In this document: in pieces, positions 8,273-30,796 of the stretch
How positions within the stretch are numbered: the stretch's first letter is position 1
Layout of the letters: each line of letters starts with the position of its first letter
Source: a virus
Lineage: Duplodnaviria > Caudoviricetes
Strand: one strand, 5' to 3'
DNA: 64,000 bases
IMG/VR virus record: IMGVR_UViG_3300025150_000002
Span: 64,001-128,000 of that record
Made by a program: the position numbers and the translations under genes
The notes under the pieces: model-generated
The model's input: only the letters and a program-made list of their open reading frames with translations
The model's database searches: none
What the model was told of the DNA's origin: nothing

Positions 8273-8794
8273 TCAGGTTACCGGCGTGCCTGGGATGACC
8301 TCTACATTATTAACCGACATCGTGAGTGACTCGATGGATACGTCACTTGAGGAGGCATCCATGTTCGTTGACGGGGTCCACCCCTTAGGAACGCAGCCAA
8401 ACAGGTTGTAAACCCGTCTGGGAATCAACTTATCGCGGCCCGTCTGCACGACCGTGAAATTCCGACGAGGGGCACCTGTTCCCCACACCGCCTGGAAGAG
8501 CCACAGGTAGAAGTCCATAGAAAGCGATGTGACTGCAGATTCGATCGTACAATCACCAGCTTTCAGGAACCCAAGGGGAACCTCGTGGGCCCACGGCCAA
8601 TTTCCTTCCTGAATCGTCTTCGTCTGCATGGTGACGTTCGGGATGGAGATGGACTTGAAGCTCAGCAATTGTCCCTCGGAGGCTCCCTGGCCGACCTTGA
8701 ATGGAAACGCCACAGGCAGCAGGCTGATCGTGGGAATGTCCAGCAGGTAGAACGAGTAGTTCTGGAGTGGATCTGTGTCTTCGGCTCTAGCCAT
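8273..8794 (-). CDS. Tail tube protein, T4 gp19-like (paralogue 2)
   Basis: DPLQNYSF N-terminus, QEGN motif, DFYLW, and C-terminal DASSSDVSIESLTM typical of contractile tail tubes. Confidence 0.85.
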   Translation of the reverse strand: MARAEDTDPLQNYSFYLLDIPTISLLPVAFPFKVGQGASEGQLLSFKSISIPNVTMQTKTIQEGNWPWAHEVPLGFLKAGDCTIESAVTSLSMDFYLWLFQAVWGTGAPRRNFTVVQTGRDKLIPRRVYNLFGCVPKGWTPSTNMDASSSDVSIESLTMSVNNVEVIPGTPVT

Positions 8795-9070
8795 AACCGC
8801 CTCGTGTGAGCATCATTGAGTCTATCAGAATACGTCCGACAGCCGAGGCCTGATTACCCGTATGTTACAGGAACCCCCACAAGGAGATTTCCCATGCGTC
8901 TGCTCGAACAGCTCTCTGTTTCAGTCAATCGACGGAACACAAGTAGCTACCACTTCTAGGTAGGCGACTAGAGAGCGGTTCTCTAGGGCCTGCCAAGTAG
9001 CGGTGCTACCAAGCAGGAGCTAGAAGTAAACGACAAGCGCAGCATCGAGGCCGCGTTCGCGAAGGCGAAC

Positions 9071-11997: not shown

Positions 11998-13143
11998 CTA
12001 GTTAACCACCAGCTCCACCACGATCTTCTTGGCGTAGTAGTTGATGAGACTATGGCTAACTCCGAGCTCGTGGGCGATGTTCTTCTGGGTCTTACCGTCA
12101 GCTAGTAGACCAGGGATGGATGCGATCTGCTCTGTCGTGAGCTTGGCATTCCCGTGCCTTTGAATCAGACTGGGAAGTCCCCAGGCGCAGCCGCGCAGGA
12201 TCGCAGAAATCTGCGCCGGTGTCACTCCATACTCGACAGCCAGTTGCTTACCGGTGACCTGACTGGCTGACTTAAGACCCTTCTGGTATCTGGTTCTGAT
12301 CTCATCAACCTGTGCACGGCTCAGCTTTGCCATACCGTGGCTGTCGCCTCTAGGTCGGTTTGATGGGTTTGCCTTGAGCGCGGCTTGCATTTTATCGATG
12401 TTACGCCTAGCGTAATCTGGATCCCTGTTCCACGGGTGTCTCTCGCCGCGCAGCACCTTCTCTGGATACTTGCGCGTCCAGTGATCATCGCCGGTGGGTG
12501 CGGTCTGGCCGCCATCAGCGTCGTTGGTCAGAAGGTTCAATCCTATTGAACTGATGTGCTCGACTTCGAGCTTCAGCGCCTCGGACTCGGTGAGCTTCTC
12601 GGCAATCCTGCGCTCAGCAGGACTGAGCCCCATCTTGAGCAGCTTGCGGATCACAGAGAACTTATGACCCTTCTTTCCCTTCTTCGCCTTCCTGATGTGA
12701 TCGCCGATCCTCGGGCAGTGCCGATCCGAGCCCTTACCCACGTAGAACACCTTGTTGGTGTCTGGTCGGATCAACTCGTAGACGTAGTAGATAGGGGTCG
12801 GATCAAGGTCTGGCGAGTCAGGGTCTGCCTGCTGATGGACCCTTGGCCGGGAGACTCCTCTACGGGAGCACCGTACACCTTGCTGCTCCCTCAATCCATC
12901 AATGAGCGTGTTCGCAGAATCCTTATCCAGGTTGGTAGCCTTTACCTCCTGGACAGGTGCAATCCCACGAGAGCGGAGGAGTCTCACCTCGTCATACCTG
13001 CGACCGGACGCCCCTGTGGCGGCCTCGTTGATGAGCCTGGTAAGACTGCTGTTCTTATGGGACTTGGCGGATTGTCTAGCAACGTGAATGACCCGACCGT
13101 CAGTCGGGTCATTCAGCGCGACCACCGAATAGCGTAACGACAT
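11998..13143 (-). CDS. Free-standing GIY-YIG-family homing endonuclease with C-terminal HTH repeats
   Basis: YYVYELIRP..VFYVGKG catalytic motif, EALKLE..I..IG..LLTN, and two AKL(S/T)..Q HTH modules. Confidence 0.8.
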   Translation of the reverse strand: MSLRYSVVALNDPTDGRVIHVARQSAKSHKNSSLTRLINEAATGASGRRYDEVRLLRSRGIAPVQEVKATNLDKDSANTLIDGLREQQGVRCSRRGVSRPRVHQQADPDSPDLDPTPIYYVYELIRPDTNKVFYVGKGSDRHCPRIGDHIRKAKKGKKGHKFSVIRKLLKMGLSPAERRIAEKLTESEALKLEVEHISSIGLNLLTNDADGGQTAPTGDDHWTRKYPEKVLRGERHPWNRDPDYARRNIDKMQAALKANPSNRPRGDSHGMAKLSRAQVDEIRTRYQKGLKSASQVTGKQLAVEYGVTPAQISAILRGCAWGLPSLIQRHGNAKLTTEQIASIPGLLADGKTQKNIAHELGVSHSLINYYAKKIVVELVVN

Positions 13144-13220
13144 GTGAGCCCCAGTATTACTGGTCTCACTCTGGTCGCGTCAGGCTGGAAATTCAACCTA
13201 AATTCGAGACCTTCTCGTAA

Positions 13221-14005
13221 CTACGTTACTACCAACTCGATGGAAACTTCCTCAACCGCAAGACTGAGCTCCTGGATCGCGACATCGGAGCTCGATGCAT
13301 CCTTGTCACCGGTCGGCTTGACAGAGGTCGGGAAGACCTCCTTCAGCTGGATCACCTTCGACGGCGAACCGTCGATGCCGAACTCGTCGGCGATGTGGTA
13401 CTCCTGGATGGTGATGTCAGAGCGGTAGGTCTCCCCACCGTTGATGCACTTGAAAATCCAGACCAGGAAGTCCGACTCCTTCTTCACGACGCCCTTGCTC
13501 AGAGAGCAATCGCCGACCTTCGGAATCCCCGGATACTTCCGGGTGTACTTATAGACACCCTCACGGTACTCGACCATGTCGACCGTGAGGTCCGGAATGC
13601 TGGCCGTCCGGAACCCGGCCACAGGGTCCAGGTTCCCGCCGGCCGGGTCGACGACGTGGAAGCGGAAGTTCGTTATGTTACGAGTTGGTCGCACCCACCA
13701 ACTCTCCTCGACTTTCACCGAGGCCCAGACTATATCATCACCCTTTCTGGGGTGCCGCGCACTTCGGGCTCGCTTGAGCCCTACTCCCTTACGGGATAGT
13801 CGTTGAACCTTCCACAGAGCTTGTGGCTTGGCTGCTGATTATCCAATTCCTGAACTTTTCAAGCCTTCACGTTTGATCTTCCGATCTCCGCAGTGGCATC
13901 AGGACTCTAAGGACTTCCCAGCAATTCACGCAGTTTTCGCTACCGGATCACTCCGGTAGGCCACTATTCCTAATGGTACAAGTCGGTGTCAACAGCACGT
14001 GCCAT
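13221..14005 (-). CDS. Tail tube protein, T4 gp19-like, split by a group I intron (exon 1 14005-13973, exon 2 13670-13221; 160 aa spliced)
   Basis: AAAGGAG SD, then MARAVDTDLYH. Joining to NFRFHVVD aligns without gaps to paralogue MARAEDTDPLQNYSFYLLD. Tube motifs YREG, KYPG, DASSSDVAIQELSL. Confidence 0.9.
13671..13972 (-). ncRNA. Group I self-splicing intron (IA-like, 302 nt, no internal ORF)
   Basis: P1 is CCAU|UA-GGAA-UA-GUGG with a U.G pair at the 5' splice site. Core elements: P GAAUUGCUGGGAA (13915-13927), Q AAUCAGCAG (13832-13840), R GUUCAACGACUA (13797-13808), S GAUAUAGUCUG (13726-13736). P7.1/P7.2 and P9 hairpins present. Terminal G at 13671. Confidence 0.92.
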
Positions 14006-14032
14006 GACGATCTCCTTTGATCGAGTTTCAAA

Positions 14033-14869
14033 CTACGAACAAACCCTGTCTGACCGACCATCGGCCAACACGCCACGTCGTTTGAGTTCCCAGTAGTCCC
14101 AGATCTGTAGGTTCAGATCTGGACGGCTCTCTTGAAGAGCCTTGATCTTCTTCATCTGTTCTGGACTCTCGACCCCCTTGACATCGACCACGGTGGTATC
14201 AGCACCGTCGTAGATCCAGAAGTCGGGGGTATAGCGTTTGGGCCTGTCGTCGACCTCGACCTCGTAGGTGACAAGCTCGTAGTCCCACGACATTCCCTGC
14301 TCATCAAGCCAACTCGCCATTCCAAGTTCCCAAGTTGACCGCATTTTGAACTTACGGCCGAGCTTGTCTGTGAAACTTAGTCGTGGACCACCACCCCATG
14401 CCGCTGGTCGCATACCCACACCGTTGCGCGATAGGACAAGACAGATAGCGGATTGGGAGGTGCCGTAGCGACGAGATAGGGCAATTGTGTCCTCGCCGCC
14501 CAAGTAAAGCCGGACCATCTCCGACTCTTCGGCATCAGACCACCGCCTGTTACGGGTGCCTGTCCTATCGACGTCCACACCTTGCTTGTGGAGAGTTTTG
14601 TAGACGCAATCAGGCTTAACGTCCATCTTCGCAGCGATGTCGGGCCCGGATACTCCCTGGTTGTAGAGCTCAACCATCTGCATCTGCTGTTTCTTTGTGG
14701 TCTTGATATGAGTCAAGTTCTTATACAGTAGCTTGACGCCGAGCTTCTTTGCGCGACAACGCGTCGTCGACTGGTCCCGGTCAAGCTGTTCGGCACACCA
14801 CTTCCCTCCGCGAGTAGGGTAGTTCTCGCGGATGAAAGAATCGTCAGAAGTGATCCAAGGGCGTCCCAT
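14033..14869 (-). CDS. Free-standing PD-(D/E)xK-type homing endonuclease with N-terminal HTH repeats
   Basis: MRSTWE..W..YE..RYTPDFW..VDVKG. Paralogous to 26588..27766. Confidence 0.75.
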   Translation of the reverse strand: MGRPWITSDDSFIRENYPTRGGKWCAEQLDRDQSTTRCRAKKLGVKLLYKNLTHIKTTKKQQMQMVELYNQGVSGPDIAAKMDVKPDCVYKTLHKQGVDVDRTGTRNRRWSDAEESEMVRLYLGGEDTIALSRRYGTSQSAICLVLSRNGVGMRPAAWGGGPRLSFTDKLGRKFKMRSTWELGMASWLDEQGMSWDYELVTYEVEVDDRPKRYTPDFWIYDGADTTVVDVKGVESPEQMKKIKALQESRPDLNLQIWDYWELKRRGVLADGRSDRVCS

Positions 14870-14871
14870 CC

Positions 14872-14907
14872 TCAACTCGAAAGATCTGTGTCAACGGCTC
14901 TGGCCAT
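14872..14907 (-). pseudogene. Orphan duplicate of the tail tube 5' end (MARAVDTDLSS*)
   Basis: AGGAG SD plus ATG GCC AGA GCC GTT GAC ACA GAT CTT, encoding the same 9 residues as tube exon 1. Confidence 0.85.
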
Positions 14908-15022
14908 GTCGTCTCCTGCTTGCGCCTTCAGTCTACCGTGTTGGCAGAGGCTGCATCACTCGCGCATCACGAGTGAGTCTAGCAGAATCGTAGCATGTGG
15001 TCCAGGCTATCGATGCTCCGAA

Positions 15023-24049: not shown

Positions 24050-24937
24050 CTAGGAGAAGACTTGCGCTATCAGAGCTACTTGTCCTAGTAGCTCATTGAT
24101 AGCCGCAACTACCTCTGTAGATGTGGTATCCAGCCCCACACTCAGGTCGAGCGAGCTCTGGGCTCCGGTGACCGCATCCCCTGAAGTCATCGAGATGTCA
24201 CTGCCGCCGGTGGAATTTGCGACCCCAAGCGTCGCTGCTAGCCCGGTGGATGCAATAGTTACATCGGTGGCGGTCGGTGTAAGGCCTATGCCAGCCCCCG
24301 CAGTCAGACCTCTGAACGGCAAATCAGCGCCGGACTTAGCCAGAGGTAGGGCGACGGTCCCGCCAGCACTACTAGACGTGTTGGCCTCTGCAGTCGTTGC
24401 GATCGTGACATCTGTCGCTGTTGGGGTGAGCGTAACCGCAGTACCTGCAGTCAGACCTCTGAACGGCAGATCAGCGCCGGACTTAGCCAGAGGTAGCGCC
24501 ACCGTTCCACCCGCGCTGCTGCTGGTGTTGGCCTCTGCAGTCGTTGCGATCGTGACATCTGTCGCTGTTGGGGTGAGCGTAACCGCAGTACCTGCAGTCA
24601 GACCTCTGAACGGCAAGTCGAACACCACCTTGGCCAAGGCAAGACCGACATCGCCGCCTGCGTTACTAGAGGTGTTGGGCTCCGCTGTTCCTGCCGGCCC
24701 AGTCGGACCCGTCGGGCCCTGCTGTCCAGTAACAAGGGCGAACCCTTGCAGCGTTTGGCCTCCGCCCATAACCTCGACAATCCGCCCATCCGCGAGCAGC
24801 TGGCGAACCGAGAAGTTGTTCTCCCTAGCCTGAAACGTCGCACCAGGCTGGTAGCTGATGGCGCTTCCGTCGAGCGGTTCCTCGATCACTATGGGTGTCG
24901 GGGACGTTACGAAATAGGTCTTGATTGTCCAGGCCAT
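24050..24937 (-). CDS. Fibre-like virion protein with internal repeats
   Basis: Collagen-like GPTGPTGPAG, three 49-aa repeats, C-terminal VAAINELL. Confidence 0.7.
   Translation of the reverse strand: MAWTIKTYFVTSPTPIVIEEPLDGSAISYQPGATFQARENNFSVRQLLADGRIVEVMGGGQTLQGFALVTGQQGPTGPTGPAGTAEPNTSSNAGGDVGLALAKVVFDLPFRGLTAGTAVTLTPTATDVTIATTAEANTSSSAGGTVALPLAKSGADLPFRGLTAGTAVTLTPTATDVTIATTAEANTSSSAGGTVALPLAKSGADLPFRGLTAGAGIGLTPTATDVTIASTGLAATLGVANSTGGSDISMTSGDAVTGAQSSLDLSVGLDTTSTEVVAAINELLGQVALIAQVFS
24245..24685 (-). repeat. Three tandem 147-bp coding repeats
   Basis: CAGTCAGACCTCTGAACGGCA recurs at 24301, 24448 and 24595 (147-nt spacing). Confidence 0.9.
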
Positions 24938-26587: not shown

Positions 26588-27766
26588 TTAGACGGAACCT
26601 CTTCTTGTCCTGTTTATACCGCGACGCTTGATCTCTCCATGGACCACATCGCGGCTCAGTCCGGTCTTCTGCGCAACCGTGGTGATGGAGTCGCCTGCGG
26701 CGTAGAGATTTGCGGCCCGATCGCGGTCCTCCTGAGGAACCCGGGCCCGGTTCGACTGAGCCTTGGTGGTAACGCGGCCCGTCGACTTCAAGAAGCTGCT
26801 TACGGTGCTGGAACCCCTCTGGATAACCTCGGCAATATTGGCGTAGGACATGCCCTCGTCGAACAGGTTCATCGCCTGGAGTCGCTCCTTGTTCGACATC
26901 CTGGAAGGAGATCCAGCAAACTTGACGCGAGCCGGCTGGTTGCAAATCTCTACATCAAGGATGCCTCTCTTCTTGAGATCGGCCTCCTCCCAAACCTCGA
27001 ACGGGAGCTCCGGGTGGTCCTGCCTGAAGAGGTTCATGCGGCGCTCACATGCCTCGGACAGCCAGCCCTTGACCTCGATGATCTGGGCTACCGACCCATC
27101 AGTTGCGTAGACCCAGAAATCCGGCGTGTAGCGACGGCGCTTACCGTCATCGTCTACTACATAGCTCTTGAGCTCGTAGTCCCAGAGTGCTCCCCGGTCG
27201 TCCAACCACTGAGCGGTGCAGACCTCCCACAAGCTACGCATAAGGTGCTCACGACCCCTGGCGTCGGACCACCTGAGCCCTACGGACTCCAGATGATTGC
27301 GCCGTTGAACCCCAGCGTCGTCGAGCGCCTTATTGATCGCGTCTCGGGAGCACTTGAACTTGATGGCCAGGAAACTAGAGGAGAACCCGTTGGTGTAATG
27401 TTCGACGATGGTCTGCTTGTCGCCCTCATCAGAGATCCGTGGCGGGGCTCCGGAGGGGCGGAAATCGTCGTAGCCGGTCTTGAGCAACCTTCGCCTTATG
27501 GTCGATGCGTCGGTGTCGAACTTCTCAGCAATCTCAGATAGCGTTTGGCCGCCAGTGTAGAGATTGGCGCACTGGTCTACATCAACGGCTGTCAAGGCTC
27601 TACGCCGCTTAGTTCGGCGTCGTGAAACCCCCACCTCATCAATGATCCTGTAAGCCGTCTGGTGGGAACAACCAACTAATCTGGCGATTTCGTTGGGACT
27701 TTTACCCTCCTTGGCCAACTCAATGATTTGTAAGCGCTCTTGATTGGATAGGCGACGTCCAGACAT
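26588..27766 (-). CDS. Free-standing PD-(D/E)xK-type homing endonuclease with multiple HTH repeats
   Basis: MRSLWE..WDYE..RYTPDFW..IEVKGW. HTH modules on both sides. Paralogue of 14033. Confidence 0.75.
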   Translation of the reverse strand: MSGRRLSNQERLQIIELAKEGKSPNEIARLVGCSHQTAYRIIDEVGVSRRRTKRRRALTAVDVDQCANLYTGGQTLSEIAEKFDTDASTIRRRLLKTGYDDFRPSGAPPRISDEGDKQTIVEHYTNGFSSSFLAIKFKCSRDAINKALDDAGVQRRNHLESVGLRWSDARGREHLMRSLWEVCTAQWLDDRGALWDYELKSYVVDDDGKRRRYTPDFWVYATDGSVAQIIEVKGWLSEACERRMNLFRQDHPELPFEVWEEADLKKRGILDVEICNQPARVKFAGSPSRMSNKERLQAMNLFDEGMSYANIAEVIQRGSSTVSSFLKSTGRVTTKAQSNRARVPQEDRDRAANLYAAGDSITTVAQKTGLSRDVVHGEIKRRGINRTRRGSV

Positions 27767-27865: not shown

Positions 27866-30796
27866 CTAGATGATAGCACTAGTGCTAGCAGTTCCAGCAG
27901 GTTGCGTCAAGTTAAATATGACAAATTCAGCTGGCTTGTTCGGCGAGAAGCCGATGTCGATGATCACCTTGCCCTGATCCATCGTCACCTGGCTGTTGTT
28001 GTTGCCGTTGCACTTGACGAAGAAGGCCTCCTCCTGGGTGTTACCGGAGAAGTACCCCAGACGAAAGAGCGAGCTGTAGTAGCCCCGGAGAGCTGTCTCG
28101 ATCTTCTGCCAGAGCTGCGGCCCGTTGTTCTCGAAAACCGTCCACTGCAGCTGCAGCTTGGTGGTGTACATCAGGAAGATGTGGAGTTGACGAGCGTTGA
28201 CGTAGCGCCAACGAGCCTCCTTCGAGAGGGACCGCGCTCCGTTGACGATGAACCCGGTAGCAACACCCGTTGGGAGAGGGTTGATTCGCGACTGGTAGAG
28301 GTTGTCCTGATCCAAGCGGGAGAGCTTGATCTCCGGTCCGACCGTTCCAGGCGCGTCCAGTGCCCCATCGACGATCCCCGCAGGGCTCTTTCCTACGTTC
28401 TTGTTCCGAGCGGTCTTCGCATAGACGCCAGCGGCGAAGGGCGACGCCGGGATAAGCTCAGGTAGCTCGGTCGAGTCGTTCAGGAAGTAGACGTTCGGGT
28501 AGTAGATGGCCGCGTTCTTGGTGTTGAACGCCTGAGTCACCAGCACGTACTGGATCGCCTCTGGCACCGTCGTTCCGTTCGCTAGCGCAAAGATCCCGAA
28601 CCGATCCTGGCGCGCATCGCAGAAGTCAACGATGTCCGCCTGGACGAAGGCCGAACCCTCGAAGTCTGGGACGACGACGTTGACCGGCTCCTCGATCAGG
28701 TCCAGAGCGTAGATGCCCTGCTTGGACCCCTCAAGGGTTGGGTTCGAGACATCGTTGCGCGTGATGACGGTGCCGTCCGTTCCGCCCGTCATCTGGTACT
28801 GAACCGCCGAGGACAGCTTCGTGTAGGCCGCCGTGATTGGCGTCGAAGCGGGCGGAGGAACAGCCCAAGTGAAGTCCAACGCTCCGGTGTTGTAGTCGAT
28901 CGTGTTCTCACCGGCGGCATCCACGTCCCCCACAATCACACCCAGCCCGTTGTCCTGGGCGTATTGACCGGTGTTGTAGAGCACATCGATCGTAGAACCT
29001 GTGAGAGGGGCGGATGTCGTGGTGAGTGAAACAGCACCGGTATCGGCGTTGATCACCGACGCTGTCGTCACGTCACCAAGCAGGTTGCCGGTCGTGTTGG
29101 CCCACACGTTGCCGAGGGCGATGTAGTCGACGTAGAAGAACGTACCGGCGATCGGGGCTACTAGTGTAGTCACCTCGATCGGTCCGGATCCAACAGACGA
29201 GGCTGTCTGACTATCGACCAGGTCGATAGTGTTGATGCCGCCACCATCAATCGAGCCGAGTAGCGGGACATCAACTTCCAGGTTGTTGAAATAGACCAGG
29301 TCGATGGTCGCCGTACCGCCGGTAGTCACAATCGCGCCGGGCGCGAAAGACCCACCCGCGATGTTACCGACACGGGCCACGCCCGAGGAAAAGGACAGGA
29401 CGTCACCTGTGACAGCACCCTGCGTGAACGTGTCACCGGGGGCGATGGCCCCTACGATAGCGCTGAGCTCCATCGTAGCGACGTTATCCTTGGTGATGAC
29501 GCTGGATACGTCGTGGTTGGCGACTACAGTCGACAGGGCTACAAGCTCGGCGGTGGTGCCGGTTAGAGCCCCAGTGTCGTAATTGACTGTACCGCCGAGA
29601 GGTAGTGCACCACCGGATCCGGTTAGGTTGCCGGCACCGTCGTCGGTGATGGTTGCCAGACCAATGCCATTCACGTTGACAGAGATCGCCAGCGTACCGG
29701 GGTGAACCGGTACGGATGCCAGAGGTGTTCCAGCCAGGCTGTAGGTCGCCGCAGTGCCACCGATGGTGGTTAGTGTCTGCGGCGCGGCCGCAGCACCAGC
29801 GTACTTCAGACGGAAGACCGTAACCTCCCGGTGAACCGGATTGTCTACGACGCCCGCATTGAAGGTGAACTCCTTGTTCGCACCGTCGATCAGTCCAGCA
29901 CTGGCTGGCAGGACCTCGTTCGCCACCGAAGACCGCTGGTAGAAGATCCGAGTGGACCCCTCCACCACAGGCAGATTGGTGAGCTGAAGCTCGAAGGCAG
30001 TGTTGGTGCTGTTGATTGTTCCTGAGGTCGGAGTGGTCGGCACGTGCTTGGTGGTACCGGACACAGCCGTGAGCTTCAGGGTGTTCGAGAGCACCGGCAC
30101 GTTGGCCAGCGATGCGATGAACCGCTGGGCTAGTGGTGCGCCACCACCAGTGCCGATCGACTCTGACAGTACGGTAACTGGAAGCATCGCCGTCGGCGTA
30201 CCGCCGACACCGATGGTCGTGGTCACCAGGAGACTTGGCCGACGGGGATCCTGAATCACGTTCAGGAGGTAGTCGGAGGCCGACGGGTCGTCGAACTGGA
30301 CCGCCTCGTAGGTCTCAACCGCATCGTCGAATGCCGGGTTGAAGTCCGCCGGGGCCAGGATCTGAAGGTCGTACTTCTCCCACGAGTTCGTGGTGTAGTC
30401 GAGGAAGTTCCGGTTACCCGAGACTCGGATCTTGAGGTCGTTACCCCACACACCCTGTCCGTTGGCTGTGAAGGTCCACTTCTCAGGACCAGGCGTCGCG
30501 TCGATGCTGACCGATGCGAAGGTCGAATCAGCCGGTGCAATGCGGTTGATCCAGGCCCTCTCTCCGCCAGTTCCGAAGAACGCCCGGATGGCCTGGGGAA
30601 CCACACCGCGCGTGTTGACCGGACCGAACACGCGAGTGAAGTCCTCAACAGACCTCACCTCGATAGGGTAGTTGGTCGGACCCTTCTGGGTCCAACCTAC
30701 GACGCCCATCTTTGCGGGCGAGAACTGATCGGGTGCGCGGGCCGGCGCCTTCTCCTGCCCGTAGACACCTGCTGACCGGTATTCAACGATCGGCAT
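27866..30796 (-). CDS. Contractile tail sheath protein (976 aa, large internal insertion)
   Basis: N-terminal AGVYGQE..VGWTQKGP..FTRVFG. C-terminal MTGGTDG, LYQSRINP, GARSLS, RYVNARQL, FENNGPQLW, IGFSPNKPAEF. Confidence 0.92.
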   Translation of the reverse strand: MPIVEYRSAGVYGQEKAPARAPDQFSPAKMGVVGWTQKGPTNYPIEVRSVEDFTRVFGPVNTRGVVPQAIRAFFGTGGERAWINRIAPADSTFASVSIDATPGPEKWTFTANGQGVWGNDLKIRVSGNRNFLDYTTNSWEKYDLQILAPADFNPAFDDAVETYEAVQFDDPSASDYLLNVIQDPRRPSLLVTTTIGVGGTPTAMLPVTVLSESIGTGGGAPLAQRFIASLANVPVLSNTLKLTAVSGTTKHVPTTPTSGTINSTNTAFELQLTNLPVVEGSTRIFYQRSSVANEVLPASAGLIDGANKEFTFNAGVVDNPVHREVTVFRLKYAGAAAAPQTLTTIGGTAATYSLAGTPLASVPVHPGTLAISVNVNGIGLATITDDGAGNLTGSGGALPLGGTVNYDTGALTGTTAELVALSTVVANHDVSSVITKDNVATMELSAIVGAIAPGDTFTQGAVTGDVLSFSSGVARVGNIAGGSFAPGAIVTTGGTATIDLVYFNNLEVDVPLLGSIDGGGINTIDLVDSQTASSVGSGPIEVTTLVAPIAGTFFYVDYIALGNVWANTTGNLLGDVTTASVINADTGAVSLTTTSAPLTGSTIDVLYNTGQYAQDNGLGVIVGDVDAAGENTIDYNTGALDFTWAVPPPASTPITAAYTKLSSAVQYQMTGGTDGTVITRNDVSNPTLEGSKQGIYALDLIEEPVNVVVPDFEGSAFVQADIVDFCDARQDRFGIFALANGTTVPEAIQYVLVTQAFNTKNAAIYYPNVYFLNDSTELPELIPASPFAAGVYAKTARNKNVGKSPAGIVDGALDAPGTVGPEIKLSRLDQDNLYQSRINPLPTGVATGFIVNGARSLSKEARWRYVNARQLHIFLMYTTKLQLQWTVFENNGPQLWQKIETALRGYYSSLFRLGYFSGNTQEEAFFVKCNGNNNSQVTMDQGKVIIDIGFSPNKPAEFVIFNLTQPAGTASTSAII

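Follow-up and report, generated by a model that had tools for sequence, protein, structure and literature searches.

Why would a phage encode the first nine residues of its tail tube protein twice, on either side of a nuclease gene? The question is raised by a 64,000-nucleotide (nt) stretch of DNA from an uncultured groundwater phage (positions 64,001 to 128,000 of IMG/VR record IMGVR_UViG_3300025150_000002; hereafter the window, meaning this whole stretch), in which the peptide MARAVDTDL is encoded at 14907..14881 (copy A) and again at 14005..13979 (copy B), both on the minus strand. The answer that we consider probable is that a free-standing homing-endonuclease cassette sits inside the first nine codons of an essential late gene, that of a gp19-type tail tube protein, and has replaced the 5′ end of that gene. 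The features on which the argument draws are the following; ORF stands for open reading frame, SD for Shine–Dalgarno sequence and aa for amino acids.

14974..14989, minus strand: promoter-like motif GATTCTG-N-TAGACTCA, conserved, upstream of the native tube start
14913..14917, minus strand: native SD, AGGAG, now serving the orphan mini-ORF; its context, caggagacgacATGGC, is common to nuclease-free relatives
14872..14907, minus strand: copy A, the native tube start stranded as a mini-ORF (match to nuclease-free relatives)
14033..14869, minus strand: putative free-standing homing-endonuclease gene, 278 aa (Pfam, profile and fold matches)
14012..14016, minus strand: cassette-borne SD, AGGAG (context shared with other cassettes)
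13973..14005, minus strand: copy B, the replacement start and tube exon 1 (intron-less homologues)
13671..13972, minus strand: ORF-less group I intron, 302 nt, after codon 11 (Rfam RF00028)
13221..13670, minus strand: tube exon 2, gp19-type tail tube protein (Pfam Phage_T4_gp19)
11998..13143, minus strand: GIY-YIG homing-endonuclease gene next to the tube gene at its 3′ end (Pfam LEM-3_GIY-YIG)

Two copies of the tube gene start

The two copies specify the same nine residues with six codons changed (2, 3, 4, 7, 8 and 9), all synonymously; 19 of the 27 bases are common to both and 8 differ. Each is preceded at 5–6 nt by AGGAG (14917..14913 for copy A, 14016..14012 for copy B). On both points we agree with the preliminary description of this locus. 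Beyond the nine common codons, copy A continues with TCG AGT TGA, giving the mini-ORF MARAVDTDLSS* (14907..14872), whose stop codon (14874..14872) is followed by gg and then by the nuclease ATG at 14869. Copy B reads MARAVDTDLYH (14005..13973) and then enters an intron, with stop codons beyond the Tyr-His. The preliminary description had copy B continue into the tube gene; it does start the tube protein, but not straight on, since an 11-codon exon 1 is followed by the 302-nt intron.

Chance and misassembly were both considered as sources of this layout. If one tandem DNA repeat is set aside, the six-frame translation of the window contains just three recurrent nine-residue peptides, compared with zero or one in each of 20 triplet-block shuffles of the window, which excludes a chance origin of the repeated peptide. 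Contigs of four other public runs span both junctions with identical sequence, all of them of the nuclease-bearing form and without joints, so that an assembly artefact is ruled out. The tandem repeat set aside in the peptide count has a period of 147 nt, lies at ~24250-24600 on the plus strand and is the source of nearly all repeated nine-residue peptides.

The exon boundaries follow from relatives, which were retrieved by scans of viral and metagenome contigs and whose loci we number from L002 onward. The intron-less tube genes of L003 and L029 read MARAVDTDLYH-NFRFHVV without interruption, which sets the boundaries of exon 1 (14005..13973), intron (13972..13671) and exon 2 (13670..13221). 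The joined product, exon 1 with its 11 codons plus exon 2, is a 160-aa protein colinear with the L003 and L029 tubes and matched by Pfam Phage_T4_gp19 (8.9e-17). Rfam RF00028 recognizes the group I intron with 75 bits (E 3e-17) over 13982..13706; there is a U at its 5′ splice site and a G at its end. With the repeat reaching to +27, the intron, at +33, follows two codons on, as had been noted earlier. His11 is CAT in all alleles with an intron after codon 11 and CAC in all intron-less alleles, and this CAT belongs to the intron, because a U is needed for the U·G wobble pair of P1 at the 5′ splice site.

Nuclease-free relatives indicate which copy is the native one. We have found 14 distinct nuclease-free loci (L005-7, L013, L014, L016, L019, L022, L029, L031, L033, L035, L036/43, L037/38, L040 and L042), all with an intact, intron-less tube gene that has a single start. 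Alignment with such relatives had been proposed as a check, and in none of the 14 is there a second start copy. In the clade to which the window belongs (L029, L031, L033, L035, L036, L037 and L040) the single start lies downstream of a phosphatase-like gene, as does copy A, and all seven loci carry the TAGACTCA-type motif or a variant of it. The context of copy A, caggagacgacATGGC (caggagacgac-ATG-GCN-AGA), recurs exactly in L029 and L031 and with one or two base changes in L033, L036 and L037; the SD context of copy B, ..aaactc.a.caaaggaga.., is common to the cassettes of L002 and L041 and not to native starts. Compared with native alleles, copy A differs at 4-6 of 24 bases and copy B at 6-8 of 24, and the native context goes with copy A only. 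Because the single starts of the clade have the context, the motif and the upstream gene of copy A, copy A with its ribosome-binding site and upstream motif is, on this comparison, the native start, and copy B and its SD are, on the same grounds, part of the insert. The comparison thus upholds two earlier proposals, that the nuclease gene was inserted into the 5′ end of the tube gene and that a replacement start carried by the insert restores the gene. The nuclease is patchily distributed, with 14 nuclease-free and more than 10 nuclease-bearing loci among tubes that are 60-98% identical.

A nuclease tied to the stranded start

The 278-aa product encoded between the copies was earlier called a PD-(D/E)xK nuclease, and the assignment holds. 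It consists of three helix-turn-helix (HTH) units (~160 residues of HTH repeats) followed by a C-terminal PD-(D/E)xK domain like that of T7 endonuclease I. Pfam matches are HTH_23 (1e-6) and Phage_endo_I (PF05367; 1.4e-6), and PF05367 is also among the precomputed matches for the window nuclease and three homologues; a profile made from six nuclease homologues matches T7 endonuclease I (1m0d) with an E value of 4.6e-6. Residues E181, D216, D229 and K231 align with the catalytic residues of T7 endonuclease I, which we take to be E20, D55, E65 and K67. Across 11 homologues, E181, D216 and K231 are invariant and D229 is nearly so. On these alignments the nuclease is a relative of T7 endonuclease I, with which it has in common the catalytic E, D, E/D, K motif (1m0d, 1fzr) and the signature YTPDF...V(E/D)xKG...P(E/D)L..I; T7 endonuclease I is a stand-alone, domain-swapped dimeric junction resolvase, whereas the window nuclease includes its HTH repeats (~160 residues) and is distributed as a selfish gene would be. 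The ratio of nonsynonymous to synonymous substitution rates (dN/dS) between close nuclease pairs is 0.08-0.12, which marks the nuclease as a maintained protein.

An AlphaFold2 model of the nuclease has a confidence score (pLDDT) of 83, reaching 90-95 in the C-terminal domain. Its best Foldseek matches are to TnsA (1f1z/1t0f; probability 1.0, E 1.5e-3), with AF1548 and XisH further down the list, and the whole model gave nothing at E <= 1e-3 against the Protein Data Bank; the query was the full multi-domain model, hence the low template-modelling scores. As modelled, the C-terminal domain has a restriction-endonuclease-like alpha/beta core, and the TnsA match fits a PD-(D/E)xK enzyme. Homologues are not easily reached: a scan of viral contigs with the single protein gave no match, and an alignment-based scan was needed. 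Among cultured phages, tblastn of the nuclease returned only distant T7-type endonuclease I genes and HTH proteins, and nothing useful came from the tube protein by tblastn or from the 3.7-kb region by megablast.

Eight distinct nuclease-bearing loci have two start copies (among them the relatives L002, L003/4/28, L030/44, L032, L008/9, L045 and L046/47), and five junction types are found among them. Those of the relatives are listed here, with a slash at the point of fusion.

L003, L030 and L032: in-frame nuclease fusion after codon 5, MARAV/EKQ; 17-base repeat with 0-1 differences
L008/9: in-frame fusion after codon 6, MARAAS/RWT
L046/47: in-frame fusion after codon 7, MARAAST/PKE
L002: native start as a mini-ORF of 9-11 codons, its stop 1 base before the nuclease start (the spacer in the window is 2 bases)
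L045: native start as a mini-ORF of 9-11 codons, its stop 0 bases before the nuclease start

The nuclease itself lacks a usable SD. In all lineages that keep the orphan start it is tied to that start, either by in-frame fusion (four junction types) or by a stop–start spacing of 0-2 bases (TGAggATG, TAAgGTG and TAG/GTG in three lineages). The nuclease appears, from these junctions, to be translated from the stranded native start, through termination–reinitiation in the window (TGA-gg-ATG) and through in-frame fusion in relatives. Coupled translation from the orphan start had been suggested for the window, and the comparison speaks for it.

The other end of the nuclease gene varies. Its ORF has no stop before copy B in L002 (3804-4703) and L046 (2501-3373), running in frame through the replacement start and ending just inside the intron; the spliced mRNA would there encode a nuclease–tube fusion unless ribosomes initiate internally. 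In the window, the nuclease ORF is closed by a TAG that lies 27 nt ahead of copy B. Between the nuclease gene's 3′ end (GGUCGGU) and codons 6-8 of copy B (ACCGAC) a stem may form that would enclose the replacement SD and ATG; it is seen in the window (13981-14058, minus strand) and in L002 (4615-4690), but is not significant in either (z -1.2 and -1.5).

As to transcription, the window holds two occurrences of TAGACTCA (minus strand, 14974-14989 and 8817-8832), and a tube paralogue lies downstream of each. The count alone is not above chance (2, with 1.4 expected in the window); what is informative is the position of the occurrences and their conservation, in that (GA)TTCTG-N-TAGACTCA, followed by ..GATGC, recurs upstream of the two tube paralogues and, in relatives, upstream of tube starts. 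The motif could serve as a late promoter or as a regulator site specific to tube genes. There is no copy of TAGACTCA between the nuclease gene and copy B, so the tube gene is probably transcribed through the nuclease gene.

The family is also found at a second tube paralogue, and in states of decay. In L013 (2826-3677) an intact nuclease is fused to GTG-ARSF at the second paralogue, with a 16-nt repeat bearing two synonymous differences, and the start of that paralogue in L002 (7124..7375) holds a decayed nuclease remnant of 83 aa. At L041 only ~100 nt of the 3′ end of the nuclease gene is left, together with the replacement SD, the start and the intron. Degenerate copies such as would belong to a cycle of gain, decay and loss are thus represented by the L041 and L002 remnants. 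The window's own tube paralogue (8794..8273) is uninvaded. A possible further nuclease remnant lies at the second tube paralogue in L030 (~3852).

Group I introns (Rfam 61-88 bits) occur in six distinct loci (the window, L002, L039, L041, L045 and L046/47), and all six have the nuclease or a remnant of it; we have found none in L003, L008, L029 or L031, and have seen none without nuclease or remnant. In the window, L002, L041 and L045 the insertion site is +33, in L039 (2696-3000) +48 and in L046/47 +25 (2581-2889 in L047; P1 pairing backs the +25 position). The introns at the three sites (the window, L039 and L047) are homologous, ORF-less and each placed after a U. Three sites within 25 bases suggest short-range transposition of the intron. 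The nuclease junctions, at +16 to +27, and the intron sites all fall inside the conserved first 50 bases of the tube ORF.

Mobility, recoding and other explanations

We propose that the mobile unit consists of the nuclease ORF, its own SD and a substitute copy of the first codons of the tube gene, with which, in the lineage of the window, the ORF-less group I intron probably travels. On the comparison with relatives, copy A is the resident, promoter-proximal start that has stayed upstream, and the insert-borne copy B and its SD now start the tube protein. Naive tube genes may be bound by the HTH array at their conserved 5′ coding sequence and cut nearby, at about +16 to +33, by the T7-endonuclease-I-like domain. 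Repair of the break from a cassette-bearing genome, with the upstream flank and copy A as left arm and the tube body as right arm, would copy in the nuclease gene, the replacement SD, copy B and often the intron. The resident would itself be immune because the full site is split, copy A being without the downstream half and copy B without the native upstream half; further protection may come from copy B's base changes and from the intron.

Several observations weigh against this proposal or against parts of it. The nucleases of L039 and L048 have an extra N-terminal HTH unit and no orphan start. Nuclease-bearing loci without an intron exist, so the intron is not an obligate part of the cassette. 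The Phage_endo_I match of the nuclease, at 28.4 bits, is slightly below the Pfam cut-off of 29.1, and folding of the RNA at the junction of mini-ORF and nuclease gave no stable or conserved hairpin (z +2.3 and +0.7). The remaining points concern the base changes. Tube genes of the clade differ by 15-20% at the base level, and the 8 of 24 differences between copies A and B are about twice this background (P ~0.03); moreover, the 17-nt repeats of the L003 type (L003, L030 and L032) are nearly unrecoded.

These last two points bear on the claim, made in the preliminary description, that the replacement start was recoded to resist cleavage. In its strong form, with copy B recoded synonymously under selection against cleavage and its base changes acting as the immunity determinant, we regard the claim as rather unlikely, although it has evidence in its favor. 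The upstream copy in L008 is identical to its nuclease-free sister L005 through base 19, and the downstream copy has 8 differences from L005 in its first 21 bases, none in the 23 that follow and 36 in the gene's remaining 465 (binomial estimate for the local excess, ~1e-4). All six codons after the ATG are changed there, including a TCC-to-AGT switch between serine codons. Six-fold-degenerate Arg3, too, differs between the copies in three lineages (AGA/CGT in the window, AGA/CGA in L002 and CGT/AGA in L045). The local excess in L008 indicates that the cassette-borne start is foreign to its host. All three orphan copies have AGA for Arg3, as do six nuclease-free alleles of the clade (CGC in L040 is the one exception), whereas codons 3-4 read CGN-GCT in the cassette copies of the window (CGT GCT), L002 and L039. 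CGN is usual in more distant lineages that have a sheath gene upstream, where CGN GCT is an ordinary allele, and its presence in the cassette copies looks, from these codons, like inheritance from a donor allele. The nearly unrecoded repeats of the L003 type indicate that recoding is not required, the excess in the window is modest as given above, and a split target site would confer immunity with no base changes at all. The all-synonymous pattern is the appearance of two functional alleles placed side by side; most of the synonymous differences would then reflect inherited divergence between donor and recipient alleles and need not be purpose-made recoding. As it was stated, the earlier claim is therefore unsupported.

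Two other explanations dispense with homing altogether. The nuclease could be immobile, a domesticated DNA-binding or junction-resolving protein co-expressed with the tail genes; the repeat would then be left over from an old local rearrangement. True resolvases do occur in the T7 endonuclease I family, the gene is under purifying selection and a paralogue lies after the sheath gene at 27766..26588, yet such a protein would be hard to square with a presence that is patchy among relatives whose tubes are 82-98% identical, with at least five different junctions at two paralogous target genes, with decayed remnants, or with the company of an intron and of a GIY-YIG gene built likewise; we give domestication little credence. 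A staggered cut by a transposase-like enzyme, leaving the repeat as a target-site duplication, seems to us far less credible still. TnsA is the best fold match of the nuclease and the repeats of L003 and L013 are short (16-17 nt) and nearly perfect, but in every lineage the repeat starts exactly at the start codon, its length varies (16, 17, ~20 and 27 nt), copy B comes with an SD context of its own that is unrelated to that of copy A, and the copies have diverged in most lineages; no terminal inverted repeats were noted, though no repeat search was made. We rejected target-site duplication on account of these start-codon-anchored, variable-length and diverged repeats with their unrelated SD contexts.

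Relation to known end-replacing elements

A homing cassette that replaces the 5′ end of a gene has its nearest counterparts in elements that replace the 3′ end. In the WHO elements at yeast FBA1, a homing nuclease replaces the gene's 3′ end and the displaced fragment is kept as a homology arm, cleavage and allele-specific resistance having been shown experimentally (Coughlan et al. 2020, PMC7282813). As in WHO, the nuclease gene of the window lies in a protein-coding gene with neither intron nor intein as its vehicle, a substitute end keeps the gene intact and the displaced native end stays beside the nuclease. Unlike in WHO, it is the 5′ end that is replaced, so that the cassette must also bring a ribosome-binding site and a start codon, and the native start passes to the nuclease. 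The two nucleases also belong to different families (intein-like LAGLIDADG in WHO, T7-endonuclease-I-like PD-(D/E)xK here), and cleavage and resistance, experimental in WHO, are predictions for the present cassette.

The mORF gene hybrids of fungal mitochondria (Allomyces atp6; Glomus atp6, atp9, cox2 and nad3; PMC3630166) are similar in that an endonuclease ORF is flanked by a duplicated gene end, of which the native copy agrees with relatives and the inserted copy has diverged, largely synonymously, and in that the nuclease ORF often shares the reading frame of the host gene. Those duplications are C-terminal, organellar and associated with LAGLIDADG or GIY-YIG nucleases, whereas the present one is N-terminal, belongs to a phage and takes in the signals for translation initiation. 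The displaced copy is native and the substitute diverged, as expected of an end-replacing element (L008 compared with L005; copy A compared with copy B in the window). Replacement of the 3′ end, typical of such elements, is not seen in the window cassette, but the GIY-YIG gene downstream does show the 3′ form.

This GIY-YIG gene (LEM-3_GIY-YIG, 2.3e-8 in Pfam) lies 3′ of the tube gene and ends in KKIVVELVVN*, which repeats the last residues of the tube; tube C-termini are VSIELVVT* in the window and IVVELVVN* in L003 and L030. The repetition extends to the last eight tube residues, and the 27-nt ends are identical in L030 and differ by two bases in L003 (5420-6653). The gene looks, from this repeat, like a mirror-image, 3′-end-replacing cassette of the mORF or WHO type (11998-13262 in the window, minus strand).

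The company of nuclease and intron recalls collaborative or trans homing, as of mobE with I-TevIII (PMC2790892, PMC2988022), and F-CphI, which lies beside the intron-bearing psbA of cyanophage S-PM2 and has its nuclease domain from the phage junction resolvase Endo VII (PMC6083498). In these cases too a free-standing nuclease gene stands beside a gene with an ORF-less (or defunct-ORF) group I intron; in the window and its relatives the intron is co-distributed with the nuclease or its remnant. The resolvase-type domain differs, being derived from Endo VII in F-CphI and of the T7 endonuclease I type here. Moreover, the nucleases of collaborative homing are intergenic and lack a duplicated gene end, whereas the present nuclease lies inside the ORF, with the intron at three alternative sites (+25, +33 and +48).

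The MobA-gene 60 cassette of phage T4 is reportedly (Bonocora and co-workers, 2011) set in an essential gene along with sequence that preserves the function of that gene. It resembles our case as a phage homing-nuclease cassette in an essential gene accompanied by function-preserving sequence; there, the gene is split and has a translational bypass element, whereas here the start is duplicated. A related source is bioRxiv 10.1101/2022.08.31.505936. Our limited literature search found no published phage case of 5′-end replacement. What is particular to this case is the type of nuclease, the targeting of tube genes at two paralogues, a movable intron at a distance of two codons and, at the 3′ end, the GIY-YIG cassette as mirror image.

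A wider reading, to which we are drawn without yet holding it likely, is that these nucleases form an undescribed family of homing endonucleases, combining an HTH array with a T7-endonuclease-I-type domain and specialized in the conserved first 50 bases of contractile-tail tube genes. Its start-replacement cassette would exploit a highly expressed essential gene, taking over the promoter, ribosome-binding site and start codon for its own translation, give the gene a cleavage-resistant substitute start and carry an ORF-less intron; with the GIY-YIG mirror cassette counted in, selfish elements requiring no intron or intein would occupy the gene at both ends. The locus shows how a homing nuclease can occupy an essential phage gene in this way, a spare start being brought and the old one borrowed. 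For annotation, it offers one explanation for orphan mini-ORFs, wrong gene starts and apparently truncated tube genes; in phage evolution, such a cassette would cause mosaic gene ends and local excesses of synonymous change; and the catalogue of homing enzymes would gain a resolvase-derived nuclease type. The naive, invaded and decayed alleles that occur naturally form a testable set for target recognition, immunity and the link between free-standing nuclease and ORF-less intron.

The window encodes a second member of the nuclease family, of 392 aa and with extra HTH units at both ends, at 26588-27766 (minus strand), immediately following the sheath gene (30796..27866) and with no tube fragment noted next to it. 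This 392-aa paralogue holds the position that the tube gene takes, behind the sheath gene, in distant relatives.

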